Below, one piece after another: positions 1,831 to 32,611 of a DNA stretch of 40,517 nt. The stretch is from positions 1-40,517 of the forward strand of contig DUQY01000066.1 in NCBI GenBank assembly GCA_012837565.1. The letters run 5' to 3'. This DNA comes from Bacteroidales bacterium. Lineage in GTDB: Bacteria; Bacteroidota; Bacteroidia; Bacteroidales; P3. The stretch's first letter is position 1, and every line of letters begins with the position of its first letter. The translations under genes were made by a program, and so were the position numbers. The notes under the pieces were generated by a model. That model had not been told where the DNA came from. It searched no databases and was given only the letters and a program-made list of their open reading frames with translations.

Positions 1831-3687
1831 TATTGATATATCGGAAGGAGAAACTCCACTTATGCGTGAGGCTTGTCCTATTGTTTTTGGACGAATCTTA
1901 GATAGCTTTTCTCTTGCCTCAAAGCTTAGGGAGTTTAAGGCTTGATAGTTGAAATCATCTTTAATAATTAGATTTTCGTGCTTTGATAACTTCTCCGATA
2001 TTTCTTGTTCCTTAACTATATAGCTCTTATATTTTATCTTAATTTCAGCTGACTCAATTGTTTCTTCCTTTATGCTTTCTTCAATTCCATCTATTTGTTC
2101 TTTAAGATAAGGAATATTATCAGCTAAGTCCGTAAGTGTTATTTGTGGACGAAGAAGTAGCTGACCAATCTTTGTTTTCTGATTTATTTTAGGGGTTTCT
2201 TTTTCATCTAATAGCTCGTTTACTTCATTTGGATTTGCATTCTTATTTTCAATAAAAGTTATTAAATCATCACAACTCTTTGTTTTTCTTTCAACCCTTT
2301 CCATTCTTTCTTTGGATGCTAATCCAAGTGCATACGAAAGAGGTGTTAATCTTTGGTCTGCATTGTCTTGACGCAAAAGAATCCTAAACTCTGCCCTCGA
2401 AGTAAACATACGATAAGGTTCATCAACTCCTTTTGTAATAAGGTCATCAATCAAAACTCCAATATAGCTTTCTGAACGTTTAAGAACAAAGGCTGGTTTC
2501 TCGTTAAGCTTTAGATGTGCATTTATTCCTGCCATTAAACCTTGTGAACCTGCTTCTTCATAGCCTGTTGTACCATTAATTTGTCCAGCAAAGTATAGGT
2601 TTTCAATTTGTTTTGTCTCTAATGTGTCCTTAAGTTGTGTTGGTGGGAAATAATCGTATTCAATTGCATAGCCAGGCTTTTGTATTACTGCATTTTCAAA
2701 TCCTTTTATCTTCTGTAAAGCTTCATATTGCACACTTAGTGGAAGTGAGGATGAGAATCCATTAATATAATATAAACTAGTATGGTTGCTTTCTGGTTCT
2801 ATGAAAAGTTGGTGTTGATTTTTCCCTGCAAAGCGGTCTATCTTATCCTCAATTGAAGGACAATAACGAGGACCTACACCTTGTATTCTTCCTTGAAACA
2901 TTGGTGAATGCTCAAATCCTGTTCTTAATATATCGTGAACATCCAAAGATGTGTATGCTAAAAAGCAACTTCTTTGAACAAGTGTTTCTTTCCTAAGATT
3001 CATAAAAGAGAATTGCCTAGGGTTATCATCTCCCTTTTGCTCCTCTAACTTACTAAAGTCAATACTGCGTCCGTCAACCCTCATTGGAGTTCCTGTTTTA
3101 AGGGTTAAGACCTCAAAGCCGTAGTTATTATGTAGGTCTTCTGACAACCCTATTGAATTCATTTCACCTATCCTCCCTGCTCCAAAGTTTTGCTCTCCAA
3201 TATGTATCTTTCCATTCAGGAAAGTACCATTTGTTAGAATAACACTTCTGGCCTCTATCTCTAATCCCATATTGGTTTTAACACCACAAACCTTACCGTT
3301 CTTTATATCCAAACCAATCACATCATCCTGCCATAGGCTTAGGTTTTCAATTGAATCCAAGACCTTATGCCAAGTTACGGAAAACATTATATTGTCCACT
3401 TGGGCTCTTGGACTCCACATTGCAGGTCCTTTTGAGAGGTTAAGCATTCTAAATTGGAGTGTGTTTTGGTCGGTAATAAGTGCTGAATAACCTCCTAGAG
3501 CATCAATTTCTTTAACAATTTGTCCTTTTGCAACTCCACCCATTGCAGGGTTGCAAGAAAGTTGTGCAATTGCATTAAGATTTTGTGTGATAAGCAAAAC
3601 AGAAGAACCTAAATTGGCTGCTGAGCAAGCTGCCTCGCACCCTGCATGTCCTGCTCCTATAACTATAACATCAAACTTTTTAAACAT
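1807..3687 (-). CDS. mnmG: tRNA uridine-5-carboxymethylaminomethyl synthesis enzyme MnmG (GidA)
   Basis: 626 aa. FAD motif DVIVIGAGHAGCEAA at the N-terminus, with GidA-typical GPRYCPSIEDK and TSRAEFR motifs. Confidence 0.95.
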   Translation of the reverse strand: MFKKFDVIVIGAGHAGCEAACSAANLGSSVLLITQNLNAIAQLSCNPAMGGVAKGQIVKEIDALGGYSALITDQNTLQFRMLNLSKGPAMWSPRAQVDNIMFSVTWHKVLDSIENLSLWQDDVIGLDIKNGKVCGVKTNMGLEIEARSVILTNGTFLNGKIHIGEQNFGAGRIGEMNSIGLSEDLHNNYGFEVLTLKTGTPMRVDGRSIDFSKLEEQKGDDNPRQFSFMNLRKETLVQRSCFLAYTSLDVHDILRTGFEHSPMFQGRIQGVGPRYCPSIEDKIDRFAGKNQHQLFIEPESNHTSLYYINGFSSSLPLSVQYEALQKIKGFENAVIQKPGYAIEYDYFPPTQLKDTLETKQIENLYFAGQINGTTGYEEAGSQGLMAGINAHLKLNEKPAFVLKRSESYIGVLIDDLITKGVDEPYRMFTSRAEFRILLRQDNADQRLTPLSYALGLASKERMERVERKTKSCDDLITFIENKNANPNEVNELLDEKETPKINQKTKIGQLLLRPQITLTDLADNIPYLKEQIDGIEESIKEETIESAEIKIKYKSYIVKEQEISEKLSKHENLIIKDDFNYQALNSLSFEAREKLSKIRPKTIGQASRISGVSPSDISILIIYISR

Positions 3688-9779: not shown

Positions 9780-11246
9780 TTAGCGAGAGTAATTTGGAGC
9801 CTCTCTTGTAATTGTTATATCGTGTGGATGACTTTCGGTATATCCTGCAGCAGTTATTTTAATAAACTTAGCTTGTTGTAATGCTGCAATATCTTTAGAG
9901 CCCGTGTAGCCCATTCCTGCTCTTAGTCCACCAAGTAGCTGATGAACAACCTCAGATATAGTCCCTTTAAATGGAACTCTTCCAACGATTCCTTCAGGAA
10001 CTAATTTATTAAGATCTTCTTCCATATCTTGGAAATACCTATCTTTCGAGCCTTGCTGCATTGCCTCCAAAGATCCCATTCCTCTATATGCCTTGTACTT
10101 TCTTCCTTCATAAATAATGGTATCACCAGGAGACTCTTCAACACCAGCTAGCAAAGAACCAGCCATAATGGAGCTTGCACCAGCAGCCAGTGCCTTAACA
10201 ATATCCCCAGAATATCTAATACCACCATCTGCAATAATTGGAATATTCATTCCCTCCACAGCATGTGCAACATCATAAATTGCACTTAGTTGAGGAACTC
10301 CAATACCAGCAATAATTCTTGTTGTGCAAATACTGCCAGGTCCAATACCCACCTTTAAAGCATCAGCACCAGCTTCCACCAATGCAATTGCAGCCTCAGC
10401 AGTAGCAATATTCCCAACAACAATATCAATATCCTTATATTTTTTTCTAACATTTCTAACAACATCAATCACATTCTTGCTATGACCATGAGCCGTATCA
10501 ATAACAATTGCATCAACTCCTGCTGCAATTACAGAATCAATCCTTTCATACATATTAGGAGTAATTCCAATTCCAGCAGCAACCCTCAAACGTCCCAAAG
10601 TATCCTTGCAAGCATTTGGACGCTCCTTAACCTTAATAATATCTCTGTAAGTAATTAGCCCAACAAGCTCTCCTTTATCATTAACCACAGGCAGTTTTTC
10701 AATCCTATGTTGTTGAAGGATATCTGCAGCCATCTCAAAGTCTGTGTTCTCAGGAGCAGTAACAACTTCTTTTGTCATCACCTCTGTAATAGGGCGATGA
10801 AGATCTCTTTCAAATCTCAAGTCTCTATTGGTTACAATACCAATTAACCTATGATTATCATCAATTACAGGAATCCCTCCAATGCTATATTCCTTCATAA
10901 GAGCTAAAACGTCCTTCACAATTGCATCCTTTTGAATTGTTATAGGATTTATTATCATCCCATTTTCAGCCCTCTTAACCTTTACCACCTCAGCAGTTTG
11001 CTGTTCTATGCTCATGTTTTTATGAAGAACACCAATACCACCCTCTTGTGCCATTGCAATAGCTAACTTAGCTTCTGTAACCGTATCCATAGCTGCAGAA
11101 ACAATTGGAATATTAATTGGAATATTACGTGAAAAGAATGAATTTGTCTGAACCTCTCTTGGGATAAGCTCAGAATATGCAGGGACTAATAAAACATCGT
11201 CATATGTAAGCCCTTCGCCAACGAATTTGTTTGAATTTGAAAACAT
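9780..11246 (-). CDS. guaB: IMP dehydrogenase
   Basis: IMPDH signatures: [11 protein letters not shown], tandem CBS domains, the catalytic loop [11 protein letters not shown] and GGIRYSGD. The track ORF starts at 11273, but that ATG overlaps a consensus -7 promoter box (11271-11278). The next in-frame ATG (11246, [17 protein letters not shown]) is the likely start. Confidence 0.93.
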
Positions 11247-11270: not shown

Positions 11271-11278
11271 CAAAGGTA
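11271..11278 (-). promoter_or_regulatory. Bacteroidota -7 promoter element (TACCTTTG on the minus strand) for guaB
   Basis: The plus strand reads CAAAGGTA, which is the reverse complement of the TAnnTTTG consensus. It lies about 25 nt upstream of the ATG at 11246. Confidence 0.55.
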
Positions 11279-11384
11279 GTAATTATTTATTAATCCAAAA
11301 AATAAAAAACAGAAAAACTAAAAACCTAATAAGTTTGGCAAATAGCAAACGAAAAGTTTTTAATAAATAAAGGTTTAGGAGTTG

Positions 11385-11409
11385 GCACTAAGCTAACTTG
11401 TCTTAGTGC
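11385..11409. repeat. inverted repeat / hairpin GCACTAAG-N9-CTTAGTGC
   Basis: Perfect 8-bp arms at 11385-11392 and 11402-11409. They can be extended by 3 bp (GTT/AAC) with one bulged G. Confidence 0.7.
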
Positions 11410-11439
11410 AACACTGAACCTATTAAAGTACATTAGTTG

Positions 11440-11534
11440 AGTGTCACCGTTTCACTCTTCTTAGGGGGTGCGAAACAGAGAAACAAGATTCATTTCCAAT
11501 ACTTTGCAAAATAATGGTGACACTTTCGCCCTAA
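11440..11534 (+). other. two interleaved inverted repeats (pseudoknot-compatible)
   Basis: AGTGTCACCGTT (11440-11451) pairs with AATGGTGACACT (11513-11524): 12 bp including one G.U. TTAGGG(GGTG)CGAAA (11461-11475) pairs with TTTCGCCCTAA (11524-11534): 6 + 5 bp with a 4-nt bulge. The arm order is 1-2-1'-2'. Confidence 0.6.
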
Positions 11535-11645
11535 AACAGCCAAAATCATCAAAATAATCTGTGGCATTAAAAAGCATTTCAGTATAGTTTAGAATACCAA
11601 AAAAGAAAAGAGTCAAAAACTATTGATTAACTGCAAAAAAATTCG

Positions 11646-11653
11646 TATATTTG
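11646..11653 (+). promoter_or_regulatory. orphan Bacteroidota-type promoter (TATATTTG, with TTG at 11623-11625)
   Basis: Exact TAnnTTTG -7 box with an upstream TTG at about the expected -33 spacing. No ORF of 60 aa or more follows before 12382. Confidence 0.5.
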
Positions 11654-11723
11654 CAAAATAGAAATGATAGGAATAAGCCCTAGAGATTTCAGTCCAAAAC
11701 CCCATATAAATTTCCTTAAAGTA

Positions 11724-11787
11724 AAATGATGCACATCTTTCACCCCGAAAGATGTACATCATTTGATATGAAAGATGTGCATCATTT
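11724..11787. repeat. 17-mer present three times (one forward, two inverted)
   Basis: AAATGATGCACATCTTT is at 11724-11740. Its reverse complement occurs at 11748-11764 (AAAGATGTACATCATTT, 16/17) and at 11771-11787 (AAAGATGTGCATCATTT, 17/17). Confidence 0.9.
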
Positions 11788-11792
11788 GGTTA

Positions 11793-11897
11793 GTGAAACG
11801 AAGATTCAGTAATTTATTACAGCGTTTCAGAAAATTAGAACAAAGAAAGAAAAAAATGAAACGAAGATCTACGACGCTCAAACGAAGATCTAATATT
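11793..11897 (-). repeat. 21-bp-period tandem array, 5 units, core CGTTTCA (array A, minus orientation)
   Basis: Minus-strand units: AATATTAGATCTTCGTTTGAG / CGTCGTAGATCTTCGTTTCAT / TTTTTTCTTTCTTTGTTCTAA / TTTTCTGAAACGCTGTAATAA (degenerate) / ATTACTGAATCTTCGTTTCAC. The CG/TG of the core recurs exactly every 21 bp. Confidence 0.8.
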
Positions 11898-11925
11898 TGC
11901 AAGCTTTTCGATTGATTATTAGGTT

Positions 11926-11970
11926 TGTTTCCGTGTTTCCAACCCTATAGTAAGAGGAAACATGGAAACA
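11926..11970. repeat. 15-bp-stem hairpin / inverted repeat
   Basis: TGTTTCCGTGTTTCC (11926-11940) and GGAAACATGGAAACA (11956-11970) pair over 15 bp with one G.U on the plus strand, around a 15-nt loop. Each arm is itself a GTTTCC direct duplication. Confidence 0.85.
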
Positions 11971-12231
11971 CCAATAATATACTTTATAAAACGCCAAAGC
12001 ATAAATAAAACCTAAGAAAAGTTTCAATCCAAGAAAATATAAACTCTTAAGCACTCGTATTATATCAAGACGGGTGAAGGAAATGGAAAATTCCTACAAA
12101 GATATCATCTTCACGGGATTATTCTTGTTGCAGCGTTTCACTCTAATAAGGGTGGTGCTACAGTGCAATTTTGTTAATAATCAACAGTTTGTATAAGAAG
12201 CCGTGCAAAAAGGGTGGATATCATAGAAAAA

Positions 12232-12290
12232 CTCTGTTTAGTTAAAATACTTTTATCACTTGTTGAGGTAGATATATTTTAACTAAAGAG
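12232..12290. repeat. long AT-rich hairpin / inverted repeat
   Basis: CTCTGTTTAGTTAAAATA (12232-12249) pairs with TATTTTAACTAAAGAG (12275-12290): 13 + 3 bp with a 2-nt bulge and a 25-nt loop. Confidence 0.8.
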
Positions 12291-12348
12291 CTATACATAT
12301 TATATAGTGGTTTTTTCTTATCTATGATGAAAGTTGTAAAAATCATTG

Positions 12349-12356
12349 TATTTTTG
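12349..12356 (+). promoter_or_regulatory. Bacteroidota -7 promoter element (TATTTTTG) for the C25 peptidase gene
   Basis: Exact TAnnTTTG match about 25 nt upstream of the ATG at 12382. Confidence 0.55.
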
Positions 12357-12381
12357 CACGTTATTTATAATAGTATGACTT

Positions 12382-21135: not shown

Positions 21136-21136
21136 G

Positions 21137-21220
21137 TTTTCTGAATCTTTGTTTTAACTTATTAGTTCTTTGTTTCAGTAAATTACTTCTTTGATTCAAA
21201 AAATCCTTTCAGCGTTTCAA
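21137..21220 (+). repeat. 21-bp-period tandem array, 4 units, core TGTTTCA/CGTTTCA (array B)
   Basis: Units: TTTTCTGAATCTTTGTTTTAA / CTTATTAGTTCTTTGTTTCAG / TAAATTACTTCTTTGATTCAA / AAAATCCTTTCAGCGTTTCAA. The TG/CG of the core is at 21150, 21171, 21192 and 21213. Confidence 0.8.
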
Positions 21221-21224
21221 TTTA

Positions 21225-21617
21225 CTATAATATATAATGCTGACGACTAAGGTCTTTGTTTTGGGATATAAGTCCTAAAAAGAATAAATCTACACTTACA
21301 AGTGTTCGTGGGTCATTAGTAATTTTGTGAAATTCCATATAGGATTCTTTGCTCTGGTATGGGTTTTTTATACAGAGAATAGTTTTGTCGTCGACTTGGT
21401 TTTGGATATTTTGAAATTCAATATAGGAACAAGAAATTTTAATAATGTTTTCTTTTCCAAATTCTTCTTCAAGTGCATGAATTAATTTGTTTGGATTTTT
21501 CCTATTTTTCTTTATTAGTTTGTTGTATAAATCAAACATATAGGGGGAGTGAATAGAATATTCGTTTTTCTTTTTTAATAAATGTAATAGCCTATTTTTC
21601 TGTTTGAATATATTCAT
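21225..21617 (-). CDS. hypothetical protein
   Basis: 130-aa ORF with its own TAnnTTTG promoter (21651-21658). I could not assign a family with confidence. Confidence 0.5.
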   Translation of the reverse strand: MNIFKQKNRLLHLLKKKNEYSIHSPYMFDLYNKLIKKNRKNPNKLIHALEEEFGKENIIKISCSYIEFQNIQNQVDDKTILCIKNPYQSKESYMEFHKITNDPRTLVSVDLFFLGLISQNKDLSRQHYIL

Positions 21618-32273: not shown

Positions 32274-32293
32274 AATTAACTAAAACCACAACC

Positions 32294-32337
32294 AAAAAAA
32301 ATACAGCAATGATTTAATTCTTTGCTGTATTTTTTTT
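32294..32337. terminator. bidirectional intrinsic terminator after gldN
   Basis: ATACAGCAA (32301-32309) pairs with TTGCTGTAT (32322-32330) over 9 bp. It is flanked by an A-run (32294-32300) and a T-run (32331-32337). Confidence 0.8.
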
Positions 32338-32343
32338 GTTTCA

Positions 32344-32490
32344 GAAATTAACTCTGCGTTTCACAAAATTAACTCTGCGTTTCACGAAATTGAATCTTCG
32401 TTTTAAAATTTTGTTTCTGCGTTTCAGCAAATCCTTTCTTTGTTTCAATTTCCTAACTCTGCGTTTCATTTTCTTGTCCCTTGTTTGGCT
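32344..32490 (+). repeat. 21-bp-period tandem array, 7 units, consensus nAAaTTnaCTCTGCGTTTCAn (array C)
   Basis: Units: GAAATTAACTCTGCGTTTCAC / AAAATTAACTCTGCGTTTCAC / GAAATTGAATCTTCGTTTTAA / AATTTTGTTTCTGCGTTTCAG / CAAATCCTTTCTTTGTTTCAA / TTTCCTAACTCTGCGTTTCAT / TTTCTTGTCCCTTGTTTGGCT (degenerate). The CG/TG of the core falls at 32357 + 21n. A further partial unit (TTTGTTTCA, 32335-32343) fuses with the terminator T-run. Confidence 0.9.
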
Positions 32491-32611
32491 TGTTTGTCCT
32501 ATCTTAATAAAAAACTAAGCTTGTAAAACAAACAAAAATTAAAAAAAGGCAGAAAGGACAGAATTAATCAATCAAAATATTAGAAATTTACATGTAATAA
32601 GAGGAAATAAT

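Follow-up and report, generated by a model that had tools for sequence, protein, structure and literature searches.

The window, by which we mean the whole analysed stretch of 40,517 nucleotides, stems from an uncultured low-GC Bacteroidales of a gut- or digester-type lineage and carries 37 ORFs, all of them housekeeping, together with three short tandem-repeat arrays that we refer to as A, B and C (Table 1). Array C lies past the gldN terminator, at whose T-run it begins, and before the stop codon of a convergent hydrolase gene, outside any ORF or promoter. The gldN hairpin was overlooked by a simple terminator scan because its loop is longer than 8 nt. Read in the frame that closes on GTTTCA, the full units of array C are AGAAATTAACTCTGCGTTTCA, CAAAATTAACTCTGCGTTTCA, CGAAATTGAATCTTCGTTTTA, AAATTTTGTTTCTGCGTTTCA, GCAAATCCTTTCTTTGTTTCA and ATTTCCTAACTCTGCGTTTCA, each scoring 18.5-23.5 bits against the family position matrix; units 1 and 2 are near-identical, and four of the six contain the variant core TCTGCGTTTCA. 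Tandem Repeats Finder (TRF) reported just the first 3.2 copies (period 21, 86% matches, score 97) because the linkers diverge. An initial annotation had placed seven units and a partial one at 32323-32490, with a C/T-G dinucleotide recurring at 32357+21n. Six full units and the partial one were recovered and the dinucleotide register holds for these six, while the seventh unit is degenerate and the GTTTCA of the partial unit, though present on the gldN T-run, is spaced by 20 bp rather than 21.

Table 1. Repeat arrays of the window and the features that adjoin them.
Feature	Position	Strand	Evidence and remarks
gldN terminator hairpin	32294..32337	bidirectional (.)	read from sequence; stable hairpin predicted on either strand
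gldN terminator parts	A-run 32294-32301; arms TACAGCAA 32302-32309 and TTGCTGTA 32322-32329; T-run 32330-32337		
Partial unit, GTTTCA core fused with gldN terminator T-run	32338..32343	+	20 bp (not 21) to next core
Array C, six full 21-bp units, in phase, all forward	32343..32468	+	family-matrix scores, TRF period 21
Degenerate seventh unit of array C (TTTTCTTGTCCCTTGTTTGGC)	32469..32489	+	opens with usual terminal linker TTTTCT
Array B, four units and terminal linker ATTTAC	21136..21225 (units 21136-21219)	+	matrix matches
Array A, five slots in exact 21-bp register, pattern FFFRF	11794..11898	-	in 1.1-kb guaB-porU gap
Inverted unit within array A (…CAGCGTTTCA)	11809..11829	+	14.4 bits on + strand
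Three 23-bp quasi-palindromes (AAAGATGYRCATCATTTG) abutting array A, leader-like	11724..11790	+	also in L209, 92.8% over 83 bp
Bacteroidetes-type promoter-like element TTCGTATATTTGCA, -7 box TAnnTTTG	11641..11656	+	aimed into leader and array A; conserved in L209

The two other arrays, which had been noted at 11793 and 21137, are both real, with the correction that array A runs on the minus strand. Two of the copies lie in convergent gaps after terminators, as had been stated. Array B sits between the RNase G terminator (hairpin and T-run) and the stop codon of a convergent 130-aa ORF; like array C, it abuts terminator and stop codon with no extra sequence. Array A is preceded by a leader, of which a diverged version occurs in locus L266, and by a promoter-like element. 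The box TAnnTTTG is part of the Bacteroidetes sigma-A promoter consensus. Promoter, leader and array form one module in the window, L209 and L266. When the homologous modules of the window and L209 are compared, the first 15-mer is inverted and most units are opposite relative to the common promoter. The gap upstream of porU could not be aligned with the sequence of relatives. Three supposedly solitary cores had also been listed: the one at 11821 is the inverted unit inside array A, and those at 11448 and 12134 are part of a different repeat, a direct one of ~45 nt with 71-75% identity, outside the 21-bp family. The strand of array A, the quasi-palindromy of the unit, the four-unit mode and the blocks common to non-homologous loci, the last three described below, had been missed in the initial annotation.

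Each unit of the family consists of a 15-bp quasi-palindrome, TGAAnCnnnGnTTCA, and a 6-bp A/T linker, GnAAAT or its complement ATTTnC, with TCTTYGTTTCA as the conserved core. The 15-mer follows the pattern TGAA-n-C-nnn-G-n-TTCA and always opens with TG and closes with CA; its left half-site TGAA is weakly conserved in the position matrix. Among related arrays, the linker shows 22.6% mismatches and the core 7.5%, though the comparison is in part circular, since the core is what defines the family. Of 103 spacings between successive cores on the same strand, 97 are exactly 21, 42 or 63 bp, and all inverted cores fall at offset 17 mod 21, which corresponds to a 15-mer flipped about its own centre and kept in register. 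The two-helical-turn geometry proposed at the outset is thus stricter than claimed. Head-to-head junctions form 11-6-11 palindromes. Four is the modal number of units (19 of the 39 arrays with at least three units), giving ~84-90 bp, and most arrays are all-forward (e.g. FFFF), inverted units being a minority and some arrays mixed (RFFFR, RRFFF-FF). Over 84-126 nt, the forward strand is rich in pyrimidines and poor in G. Unit variants follow no fixed order within the four-unit arrays, an unusual trait for a classical MITE; a fixed four-unit master element in the strict form was rejected on this ground. Coding potential was also rejected: of 35 arrays, 27 have two open frames, as expected for a stop-free 7-codon repeat, and the arrays lie outside ORFs.

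That the array at 32323-32490 belongs to a dispersed 21-bp family, as first suggested, is borne out by 19 matrix matches of at least 13 bits in the window against 1.05 expected from Markov shuffles. Enrichment over shuffled sequence was likewise found for CTCTGCGTTTCA, which with up to two mismatches occurs 12 times in the window (2.1 expected; 0 of 100 shuffles reached 12). In line with the intergenic character ascribed to the family, 16 of the 19 strong matrix matches are intergenic, though intergenic DNA makes up only ~10% of the window. Among the matches listed in a genome-collection scan for three YGTTTCA at 21-bp spacing, the true family was present on at least three contigs, which belong to one MAG, and the other matches were mostly unrelated 7-mer microsatellites and coding repeats. 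About 40 further arrays of the family were found in metagenome contigs with a GC content of 28-41%, and extrapolation suggests a copy number of roughly 20-200 per genome. In metagenome assemblies of an abundant uncultured Bacteroidales, the arrays are located at synteny breakpoints and contig ends.

The arrays lie mainly in permissive DNA at the 3' ends of genes, many of them within a few bp of the stop codon and often touching the T-run of a terminator. Their flanks were classified as co-directional sense (14), convergent (11), co-directional antisense (9) and divergent (5), and relative to the upstream gene 29 arrays are in sense and 15 in antisense orientation. The 74 array-flanking proteins that we scanned matched 102 Pfam families, mostly housekeeping, and no transposase family was among the 25 Pfam families listed for them; local BLASTP of 89 flanking ORFs gave no recurrent neighbour family beyond orthologous pairs. 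The idea of a transposase or binding-protein gene that regularly accompanies the arrays was rejected on these results. Within the window, no transposase, Rep, cas, RAYT or tnsB/MuA-like gene was found, which upholds the earlier statement that neither a transposase nor a Rep gene is nearby. BLAST revealed no plasmid or phage match for array C, and viral contigs contained only an unrelated conserved repeat, CTGCAGTTTTTCTTCGTTTCA, on which basis a phage origin was rejected. Rfam gave no match for the whole window at the gathering threshold (0 hits) and only chance-level ones for the array A region at E up to 1. In CRISPR loci, repeats are separated by unique spacers of ~26-40 bp and cas genes lie nearby; here the units are contiguous, with no spacers and no cas genes, so that the exclusion of CRISPR stands. 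Related arrays of 22-23-bp palindromes (GATGYRCATC, GGCGTTTTCT, GACATGGGCATGTC) occur in the same gaps of relatives.

Comparison between loci revealed how the arrays are distributed. Three pairs of contigs have an array block in common (L177/L199, 76 bp at 90.8% identity; L148/L212, 110 bp at 97.3%; L124/L134, 79 bp at 91.1%), and in each pair the array is the sole similarity, with sharp boundaries, the loci being non-homologous. Such sharing points to an element that is mobile or copy-pasted and not to a regulatory array specific to one locus. In ~119 kb of syntenic DNA from the loci of seven relatives, no array was found. Array C is unchanged in six other assemblies that are 99.6-99.96% identical to the window and likewise in L197. 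In the 90% and 70% relatives, gldN is not followed by an array. Array B is identical in L268-L270, three loci that represent 24 contigs, and is missing from the orthologous gap of an 89% relative, where comparison with L264/L265 reveals a clean ~91-bp indel. This indel may be an insertion or a deletion, since the outgroups L266 and L267 have other repeats in the gap; the single filled/empty pair shows no clear target-site duplication, as the flanking hexamers (GTTTTC vs ATTTAC) match at four of six positions and the length of the T-run differs too. The orthologous loci L026 and L200 have six and four units, respectively. As is generic for MITEs, the same element thus stands at non-homologous loci and shows presence/absence polymorphism, but no terminal inverted repeats were found that are distinct from the module palindromy, and no parent element was found: the ends of arrays look inverted solely because the modules are quasi-palindromic (e.g. 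GTAAAATGAATC…GATTCATTTTTC in L134).

On balance, and with confidence only somewhat above even, we interpret array C as one copy of a dispersed repeat element that is non-autonomous and lineage-restricted. Several related genomes carry the element at many intergenic sites that are unrelated to each other, and copies are gained or lost between species as clean indels. An enzyme whose gene lies elsewhere in the genome would move or copy blocks in trans. Either this mobilising enzyme or a host architectural protein might recognise the conserved core on one helix face as a site of the dimer type, which would explain why core and phase are kept while linkers drift. After insertion, whole modules may be duplicated or deleted, as units 1 and 2 of array C suggest, and the quasi-palindrome may be inverted in place. 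Array C, which lies beyond the gldN terminator, would need no function for gldN; it looks like neither a gldN regulator nor a phase-variation switch, and the convergent hydrolase gene probably carries it passively in the 3' UTR of its mRNA.

In our best reading the element is of the same kind as REP/BIME, NIME or BrickBuilt and yet a member of none of them. BrickBuilt, which had been named as the nearest precedent, is a minisatellite-containing MITE of Porphyromonas gingivalis with a 23-nt tandem unit (Klein et al. 2015, PMC4596501). The precedent proved a good lead as to kind: the host order is again Bacteroidales, the copies are always intergenic and number in the tens, the tandem units are spacer-less, imperfect, about two helical turns long and conserved mainly in one part, unit number varies between loci, and some copies have a promoter-bearing leader (here array A, L209 and L266). 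Membership fails, however. The period is 21 bp here, arrays are short whereas BrickBuilt reaches 22.8 units, most copies, including B and C, have neither leader nor tail, and the units are quasi-palindromic and invertible in register. No similarity to the leader or tail of BrickBuilt_5 was detected by BLAST, and the IS5-like terminal repeat (GAGACCTTTGCA / TGCAAAGGTCTC, up to two mismatches) gave five window matches against 3.1 expected, none of them near an array. In that study (PMC4596501) the 23-nt unit is published only as a logo figure; GTTTCA and TGAAAC are absent from the text supplementary files.

REP/BIME, the bacterial interspersed mosaic elements of Proteobacteria, are mobilised by RAYT transposases (PMC2817692; PMC3184786). 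Like them, the 21-bp element is a short, multi-copy extragenic repeat found mostly at gene 3' ends and in convergent gaps, forms mosaic arrays whose regularly spaced elements may face either way, is non-autonomous and has a lineage-specific sequence; REP/BIME are in addition bound by host proteins. In contrast to REP/BIME, whose imperfect palindromes of 20-40 bp form stable stem-loops, the modules are mostly direct rather than alternating, the palindrome arms are only 4-6 bp long and AT-rich with no stable GC-rich stem-loop, a GTAG-type 5' tetranucleotide is lacking, no RAYT gene, a Y1 transposase gene that REPs flank in their host genomes, occurs in the window or among the families listed for array neighbours, and the host belongs to the Bacteroidota. 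Other intergenic mosaics are built on a comparable principle. In the Neisseria intergenic mosaic elements (NIME), RS units of 50-150 bp lie between 20-bp dRS3 repeats, and pneumococcal BOX elements have tandem boxB modules with distinct A and C end modules. With both, the family described here shares a modular intergenic mosaic design of short dyad-symmetric modules in locus-variable number and with no coding capacity; it differs in module sizes, sequences and taxa, and in that every module follows the same 21-bp design in strict helical phase. Plasmid iterons and OmpR/PhoB-type or partition-site arrays are direct sites of ~20-22 bp with a conserved core and a variable spacer on one helix face, features that recur in our ~21-bp direct sites. 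Iterons, however, adjoin a Rep gene or origin and form one or a few clusters per replicon. Here no Rep, Par or regulator gene is adjacent, and dozens of chromosomal copies, three of them within 40 kb, lie among unrelated housekeeping genes and are not retained at orthologous sites.

A host function could account equally well for the strict phase and the conserved core; this is the main rival and is compatible with mobility. According to this possible, though on the whole unlikely, alternative, the arrays form a protein-binding lattice in which the 15-bp quasi-palindromes are operator-like sites for a dimeric nucleoid-associated protein or a dedicated regulator. The 21-bp spacing would align the dimers on one face in a cooperative filament or bent segment. 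This structure would insulate convergent transcription units from each other or mark the boundary between them, or else serve as an upstream platform for regulation. A phase that is nearly invariant despite diverged linkers, a core 3-4 times better conserved than the linker, inverted modules whose exact dyad position a symmetric binder could tolerate, the palindromic head-to-head junctions, the lack of a fixed orientation relative to transcription, and about eight arrays located 9-73 bp upstream of a promoter-like TAnnTTTG box are all consistent with such a lattice, and by analogy its geometry may be likened to that of iteron and OmpR/PhoB-type tandem sites. Nevertheless, close relatives do not keep the arrays at orthologous sites, no common feature links the neighbouring genes, the left half-site is weakly conserved, and the occurrence of identical blocks at unrelated loci speaks for copying and against independent selection. 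More speculatively, and in our opinion doubtful, the arrays might be genome-wide phased landing pads of four to six quasi-palindromes, coated by a lineage-specific dimeric protein, possibly a domesticated recombinase, to form a nucleoprotein plug at gene 3' ends. Such a rigid or bent plug would block read-through and antisense transcription or fix the boundaries of supercoil domains; the family would then be a bacterial counterpart of insulator arrays, with one and the same protein both reading and spreading them, and the 22-23-bp palindrome arrays of relatives would represent parallel site/protein pairs.

We consider it improbable that the element acts at the RNA level, with arrays transcribed in 3' UTRs or as promoter-driven small RNAs and the 11-nt motif sponging up a protein or sRNA, stabilising the transcript, or, being C-rich and G-poor, loading Rho in support of the intrinsic terminator. 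Most arrays do adjoin gene 3' ends, the pyrimidine-rich composition would suit such a role, array C is probably transcribed, given that it is bounded by the stop codon of the hydrolase gene and by a bidirectional terminator, and a promoter-like box is aimed into array A, L209, L266 and L151/L166/L174. A promoter of this kind is found in a minority only, since most arrays have none aimed at them within 200 bp, and an own promoter was rejected as a general array feature. The proposal of an RNA motif in 3' UTRs, which had been raised in the initial annotation, is further weakened by the mixed orientations to neighbouring genes and the opposed units of the window and L209 relative to their common promoter. 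Moreover, the arrays exhibit no excess RNA stability apart from terminator and leader palindromes (array A alone, z = +0.57; the negative folding z-scores around array C stem from the terminator), Rfam gave no match, and exact DNA helical phasing has no obvious RNA rationale. As regards the origin of the arrays, transposons of the Tn7/Mu/Tn402 type have ends with three or four direct transposase-binding sites of ~19-22 bp within about 90 bp and termini TG…CA. The modal array size, the TG and CA that bound every 15-mer and the mixture of inverted and direct units in some arrays recall such ends, yet descent from them as remnants or miniature derivatives appears very improbable to us: no tnsB/MuA-like or other transposase was found in the window or among the families listed for the flanking proteins, most arrays are purely direct and solitary with no opposing end nearby, and housekeeping genes lie on both sides within ~100 bp. 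Finally, a slippage-prone contingency locus had been suggested, which here would cause phase variation of gldN or of the hydrolase gene next to it; tandem repeats without spacers as well as the different unit numbers of the orthologues L026 and L200, a difference at the species level, would fit it. This idea is hardly credible in light of the invariance of arrays B and C in all near-identical assemblies examined, the imperfect units (82-86% matches), which disfavour slippage, and the position of array C.

We therefore return to the reading of a dispersed, non-autonomous element. A literature search by unit sequence and keywords found no published description of a 21-bp repeat of this type, and the 21-bp-module element is in this sense previously undescribed. 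Short dispersed repeats such as REP/BIME, BOX, NIME and MITEs have a bearing on transcription and mRNA stability as well as on genome rearrangement and the quality of assemblies, and to our knowledge they are almost unexplored in Bacteroidota outside P. gingivalis. If merely selfish and minisatellite-like, the element would be a modest addition to the bacterial repeat catalogue. The arrays account for the contig breaks next to the T9SS operon and are a practical marker for this Bacteroidales lineage. What sets the element apart is a very simple and regular design, a 15-bp quasi-palindrome and a 6-bp linker in two-turn phase with in-register inversion, that has evidently been copied as blocks without recognisable transposon hallmarks. 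The trans-acting protein, if found, could define a new mechanism of mobilisation or DNA architecture.

We found that the DNA downstream of gldN (32323-32490) reads as the initial annotation had described it, with corrections in detail. Array C, which lies 3' of gldN and is convergent with a hydrolase gene, comprises six complete 21-bp units, and the last of the seven units originally counted is degenerate. The partial unit reported on the T-run of the gldN terminator does carry a GTTTCA core, but not at the expected spacing. Because the linkers diverge, Tandem Repeats Finder (TRF) detects period 21 over the first 3.2 copies of array C only. The gldN terminator is a long-loop hairpin, whose flanking A-run and T-run suggest that it is bidirectional. 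A hairpin with a 13-bp stem (GCTTGTTTGTCC…GTAAAACAAAC) separates array C from the stop codon of the hydrolase gene (32490-32545); it has a U-run on neither strand and is therefore no obvious terminator. All three loci previously assigned to the family, near 11793, 21137 and 32344, are genuine arrays (A, B and C), although the minus-strand orientation of array A had been missed. When tested for enrichment over chance, the family is clearly non-random in the window: the 12-mer with at most two mismatches occurs 12 times (2.1 expected), and a 21-column position matrix derived from confirmed units gives 19 matches of at least 13 bits (1.05 expected), 16 of which fall in non-coding DNA, about 10% of the window.

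Coordinates of the repeat features in the window and in contig loci (L-numbers) from metagenomes or relatives
Feature	Position	Strand	Remarks
Array C, six complete 21-bp units	32343-32468	+	frame closing each unit on GTTTCA
Array C, degenerate seventh slot	32469-32489		
Partial unit, GTTTCA core fused to gldN terminator T-run	32338-32343		20 bp, not 21, from next core
Array B, four units	21136-21219	+	after RNase G, convergent with a 130-aa ORF
Array A, five slots	11794-11898	-	exact register, one slot inverted; in the 1.1-kb guaB-porU gap
Promoter-leader-array module	window 11641-11790; L209 994-1135; L266 ~11690-11810		
~45-nt direct repeat (…CA.CGTTTCACTCT…AGGG.G.G…ACAG)	11432-11476 and 12118-12160		71-75% identical; in the guaB-porU gap
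21-23-bp-period duplications of relatives	L262 11634-11679; L264 616-654, 7946-7999; L266 7062-7101, 11749-11918; L267 2546-2587, ~11650-11730		

In the matrix, the 11-mer TCTTYGTTTCA at positions 11-21 is conserved, and positions 1-10 are variable apart from a conserved T at position 7. Re-framed, each module consists of a quasi-palindrome of 15 bp (TGAA-n-C-nnn-G-n-TTCA) and, after it, a linker of 6 bp that reads GnAAAT or, as the complement, ATTTnC. We analyzed core spacing at 34 family loci using the core alone, so that the register was not built in. Successive same-strand cores were exactly 21, 42 or 63 bp apart in 97 of 103 cases, which bears out the 21-bp phase first noted, and every opposite-strand core lay at offset 17 mod 21. 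This offset is exactly what an inversion of the 15-mer around its midpoint produces, and head-to-head junctions therefore form 11-6-11 palindromes. At the same position in homologous modules of the window and L209, the first 15-mer reads TGAAACGAAGATTCA in one and the reverse complement TGAATCTTCGATTCA in the other. Four is the most frequent unit number (19/39 arrays with at least three units).

The same units were present on at least three contigs of one MAG among the matches listed in a genome-collection scan, which otherwise returned mostly unrelated repeats. The metagenome scan, which was unbiased, complete and based on a strict two-core pattern, was more specific; it yielded 109 loci, about 40 of them family arrays, on contigs of 28-41% GC, and recovered array C of the window itself (L197). 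No family members were found in viral contigs, plasmids or phages. A repeat, …TTTCTTCGTTTCACTGCAGTTTTTCTTCGTTTCATCGTATTTC…, common to many viral contigs of ~30% GC (L230-L248; also L139, L141, L155, L193 and others), appears to be coding and has no relation to the family; a chance match to the search pattern brought it into the results.

True orthologues excepted, the genes flanking the arrays are mutually unrelated. The 74 flanking proteins scanned matched 102 different Pfam families, mostly housekeeping, and the 25 families listed for them include no transposase. Relative to the forward strand of the array, flanks were co-directional sense in 14 cases, convergent in 11, co-directional antisense in nine and divergent in five, and many arrays end a few bases from a stop codon. 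Gene 3' ends are therefore preferred and divergent promoter gaps avoided, and array orientation is not fixed relative to transcription. A two-unit array is conserved in three metagenomes (L151 8272-8313, L166 8516-8557, L174 552-593). A strong promoter-like box (AATTCGTATCTTTGCA) precedes it by 36 bp, and a conserved gene of ~750 aa follows after ~100 bp; here, the units are in the 5' leader and conserved along with the locus. Two other arrays (L184 ~281-330; L220, array at 2736-2819, minus strand) are directly followed by a palindromic repeat of another type (TGACATGGGCATGTCGCA… and TGACATACCCATGTCGCA…), which further supports the view that the intergenic regions are mosaics of different dyad-symmetric modules.

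By Pfam, every ORF in the window has a housekeeping function (obg, mnmG, ybeY, PPIases, guaB, PorU-like C25 peptidase, hemD, rnpA, yidD, ssb, HU, RNase G, ABC ATPase, α/β-hydrolase, Rnf, glycosyltransferases, 2-oxoacid:ferredoxin oxidoreductase, SOD and the T9SS genes porP and gldK/L/M/N). No transposase, integrase, Rep or cas gene is among them, in agreement with the earlier statement that no transposase or Rep gene is nearby. Among GldN and RNase G homologues with a source name, the nearest carry the annotation MAG 'Bacteroidales bacterium', and the window sequence was found again in MAG GCA_947631795.1 and many metagenome assemblies.

A comparison of unit number between strains showed arrays B and C to be invariant. 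Six assemblies with 99.6-99.96% identity to the window carry array C without any change, the three loci shown for array B, which represent 24 contigs, likewise agree with the window throughout the array, and there was no sign of hypervariability of either array among near-identical assemblies. The proposal of a slippage-prone contingency locus is thereby essentially refuted. For the species-level comparison, relatives are designated here by percentage. In the 90% and 70% GldN relatives, gldN is not followed by an array, and a methyltransferase gene takes the place of the convergent hydrolase of the window. Synteny breaks exactly in this gap (window 32274-32611; L257/L262 ~10868-10950; contig ends L258, L259, L260, L261), and the contigs of the 85% and 74% relatives, from four independent assemblies, terminate 225 and 118 bp past gldN, respectively, that of the 85% relative within a family unit. 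This suggests that repeats 3' of gldN favour rearrangement or interrupt assembly.

In the RNase G gap, the 89% relative has the terminator only and differs from the window by a clean ~91-bp indel that corresponds exactly to array B, a single filled/empty pair that is unpolarised. In this gap, the 86% relative carries three GATGYRCATC palindromes and a related 22-bp repeat (AAAGATGGCGTTTTCT) in four to five copies, and the 84% relative yet a different 22-bp repeat. The loci of seven relatives, together ~119 kb of syntenic DNA, contained no window-type array. Three contig pairs share the array alone, with sharp boundaries (L177/L199, 76 bp at 90.8%; L148/L212, 110 bp at 97.3%; L124/L134, 79 bp at 91.1%), and whole multi-unit blocks have therefore been copied between unrelated sites. 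Between the orthologous loci L026 and L200 (~90% identity across 4.9 kb), array length differs by two complete units. The relatives also contain several unrelated intergenic tandem duplications with periods of 21-23 bp. TRF rows in ~160 kb comprise 12 with these periods, two with periods of 18-20 and four with periods of 24-26, which hints at a general bias to two-helical-turn duplications in the lineage.

The guaB-porU gap (11274-12381), upstream of the PorU-like gene, is unusually long for non-coding DNA and packed with repeats; it was unalignable with the relatives' gaps (521 and 849 bp) except beside the genes. One module opens with a promoter-like box, TTCGTATATTTGCA, followed by a ~65-nt leader and three 23-bp quasi-palindromes (AAAGATGYRCATCATTTG), which can fold into alternative long hairpins, and directly thereafter by a 21/22-bp array. 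The leader module recurs in L209 (92.8% over 83 bp), where its surroundings are different, and a diverged copy lies in a relative's RNase G gap (L266). The module may represent a small transcription unit, or else serve as the 'leader' to a composite element. Downstream of the family array in L209, a perfect (ATGT)n microsatellite of ~100 bp (1353-1452) lies in or beside a small ORF. The cores at 11448 and 12134, formerly listed as solitary family members, belong to the separate ~45-nt direct repeat and thus lie outside the 21-bp family.

Among known families, BrickBuilt, initially named as the nearest precedent, is indeed closest in taxon and style, but tests for its defining features (PMC4596501), namely the 23-nt unit, the leader and tail segments and the terminal repeats of IS5 type, were all negative here, and we reject membership. 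The family shares location and mosaic logic with REP/BIME elements, which are characterized by stable GC-rich hairpins, alternating orientation and RAYT association (PMC2817692); neither the hairpins nor the alternating orientation were found. Dispersal and polymorphism are as in a generic MITE; as for terminal repeats, the array ends look inverted only through the quasi-palindromy of each module, and the hexamers flanking the array B indel (GTTTTC and ATTTAC) agree at 4 of 6 positions, an ambiguous target duplication. Iterons, CRISPR and transposon ends of the Tn7/Mu type were also weighed and do not match. The literature searched held no description of such a repeat or of its unit sequence. 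Based on these comparisons, we class the family as a dispersed intergenic mosaic repeat that belongs to no named family.

The best-supported reading is that the arrays are a non-autonomous dispersed repeat element that spreads as blocks of 21-bp modules and later changes by duplication or loss of whole modules and by in-place inversion, because they are dispersed among unrelated housekeeping genes, show clean presence/absence differences, recur as identical blocks at non-homologous loci, prefer permissive 3' DNA, contain no gene of their own and are restricted to one lineage. The main rival is that selection may keep the arrays because they serve the host as architectural or insulating DNA, with which their geometry is compatible; this reading is weakened because their positions are not conserved and the neighbouring genes lack a functional theme. 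Action at the RNA level appears improbable: although transcription of the hydrolase 3' UTR probably runs passively through array C and a promoter-like box precedes a minority of the arrays, both orientations occur, the array itself has no structural signal, in-place inversion separates the window and L209 modules, and no Rfam family was matched.

For a non-autonomous element, we propose that a trans-acting protein, either a mobilising enzyme or a host factor, would read the core as a dimer-type site on one helix face. Such a reader would explain the near-absolute phase and the retention of the core while linkers drift, bearing in mind that the core-versus-linker statistic is partly circular.
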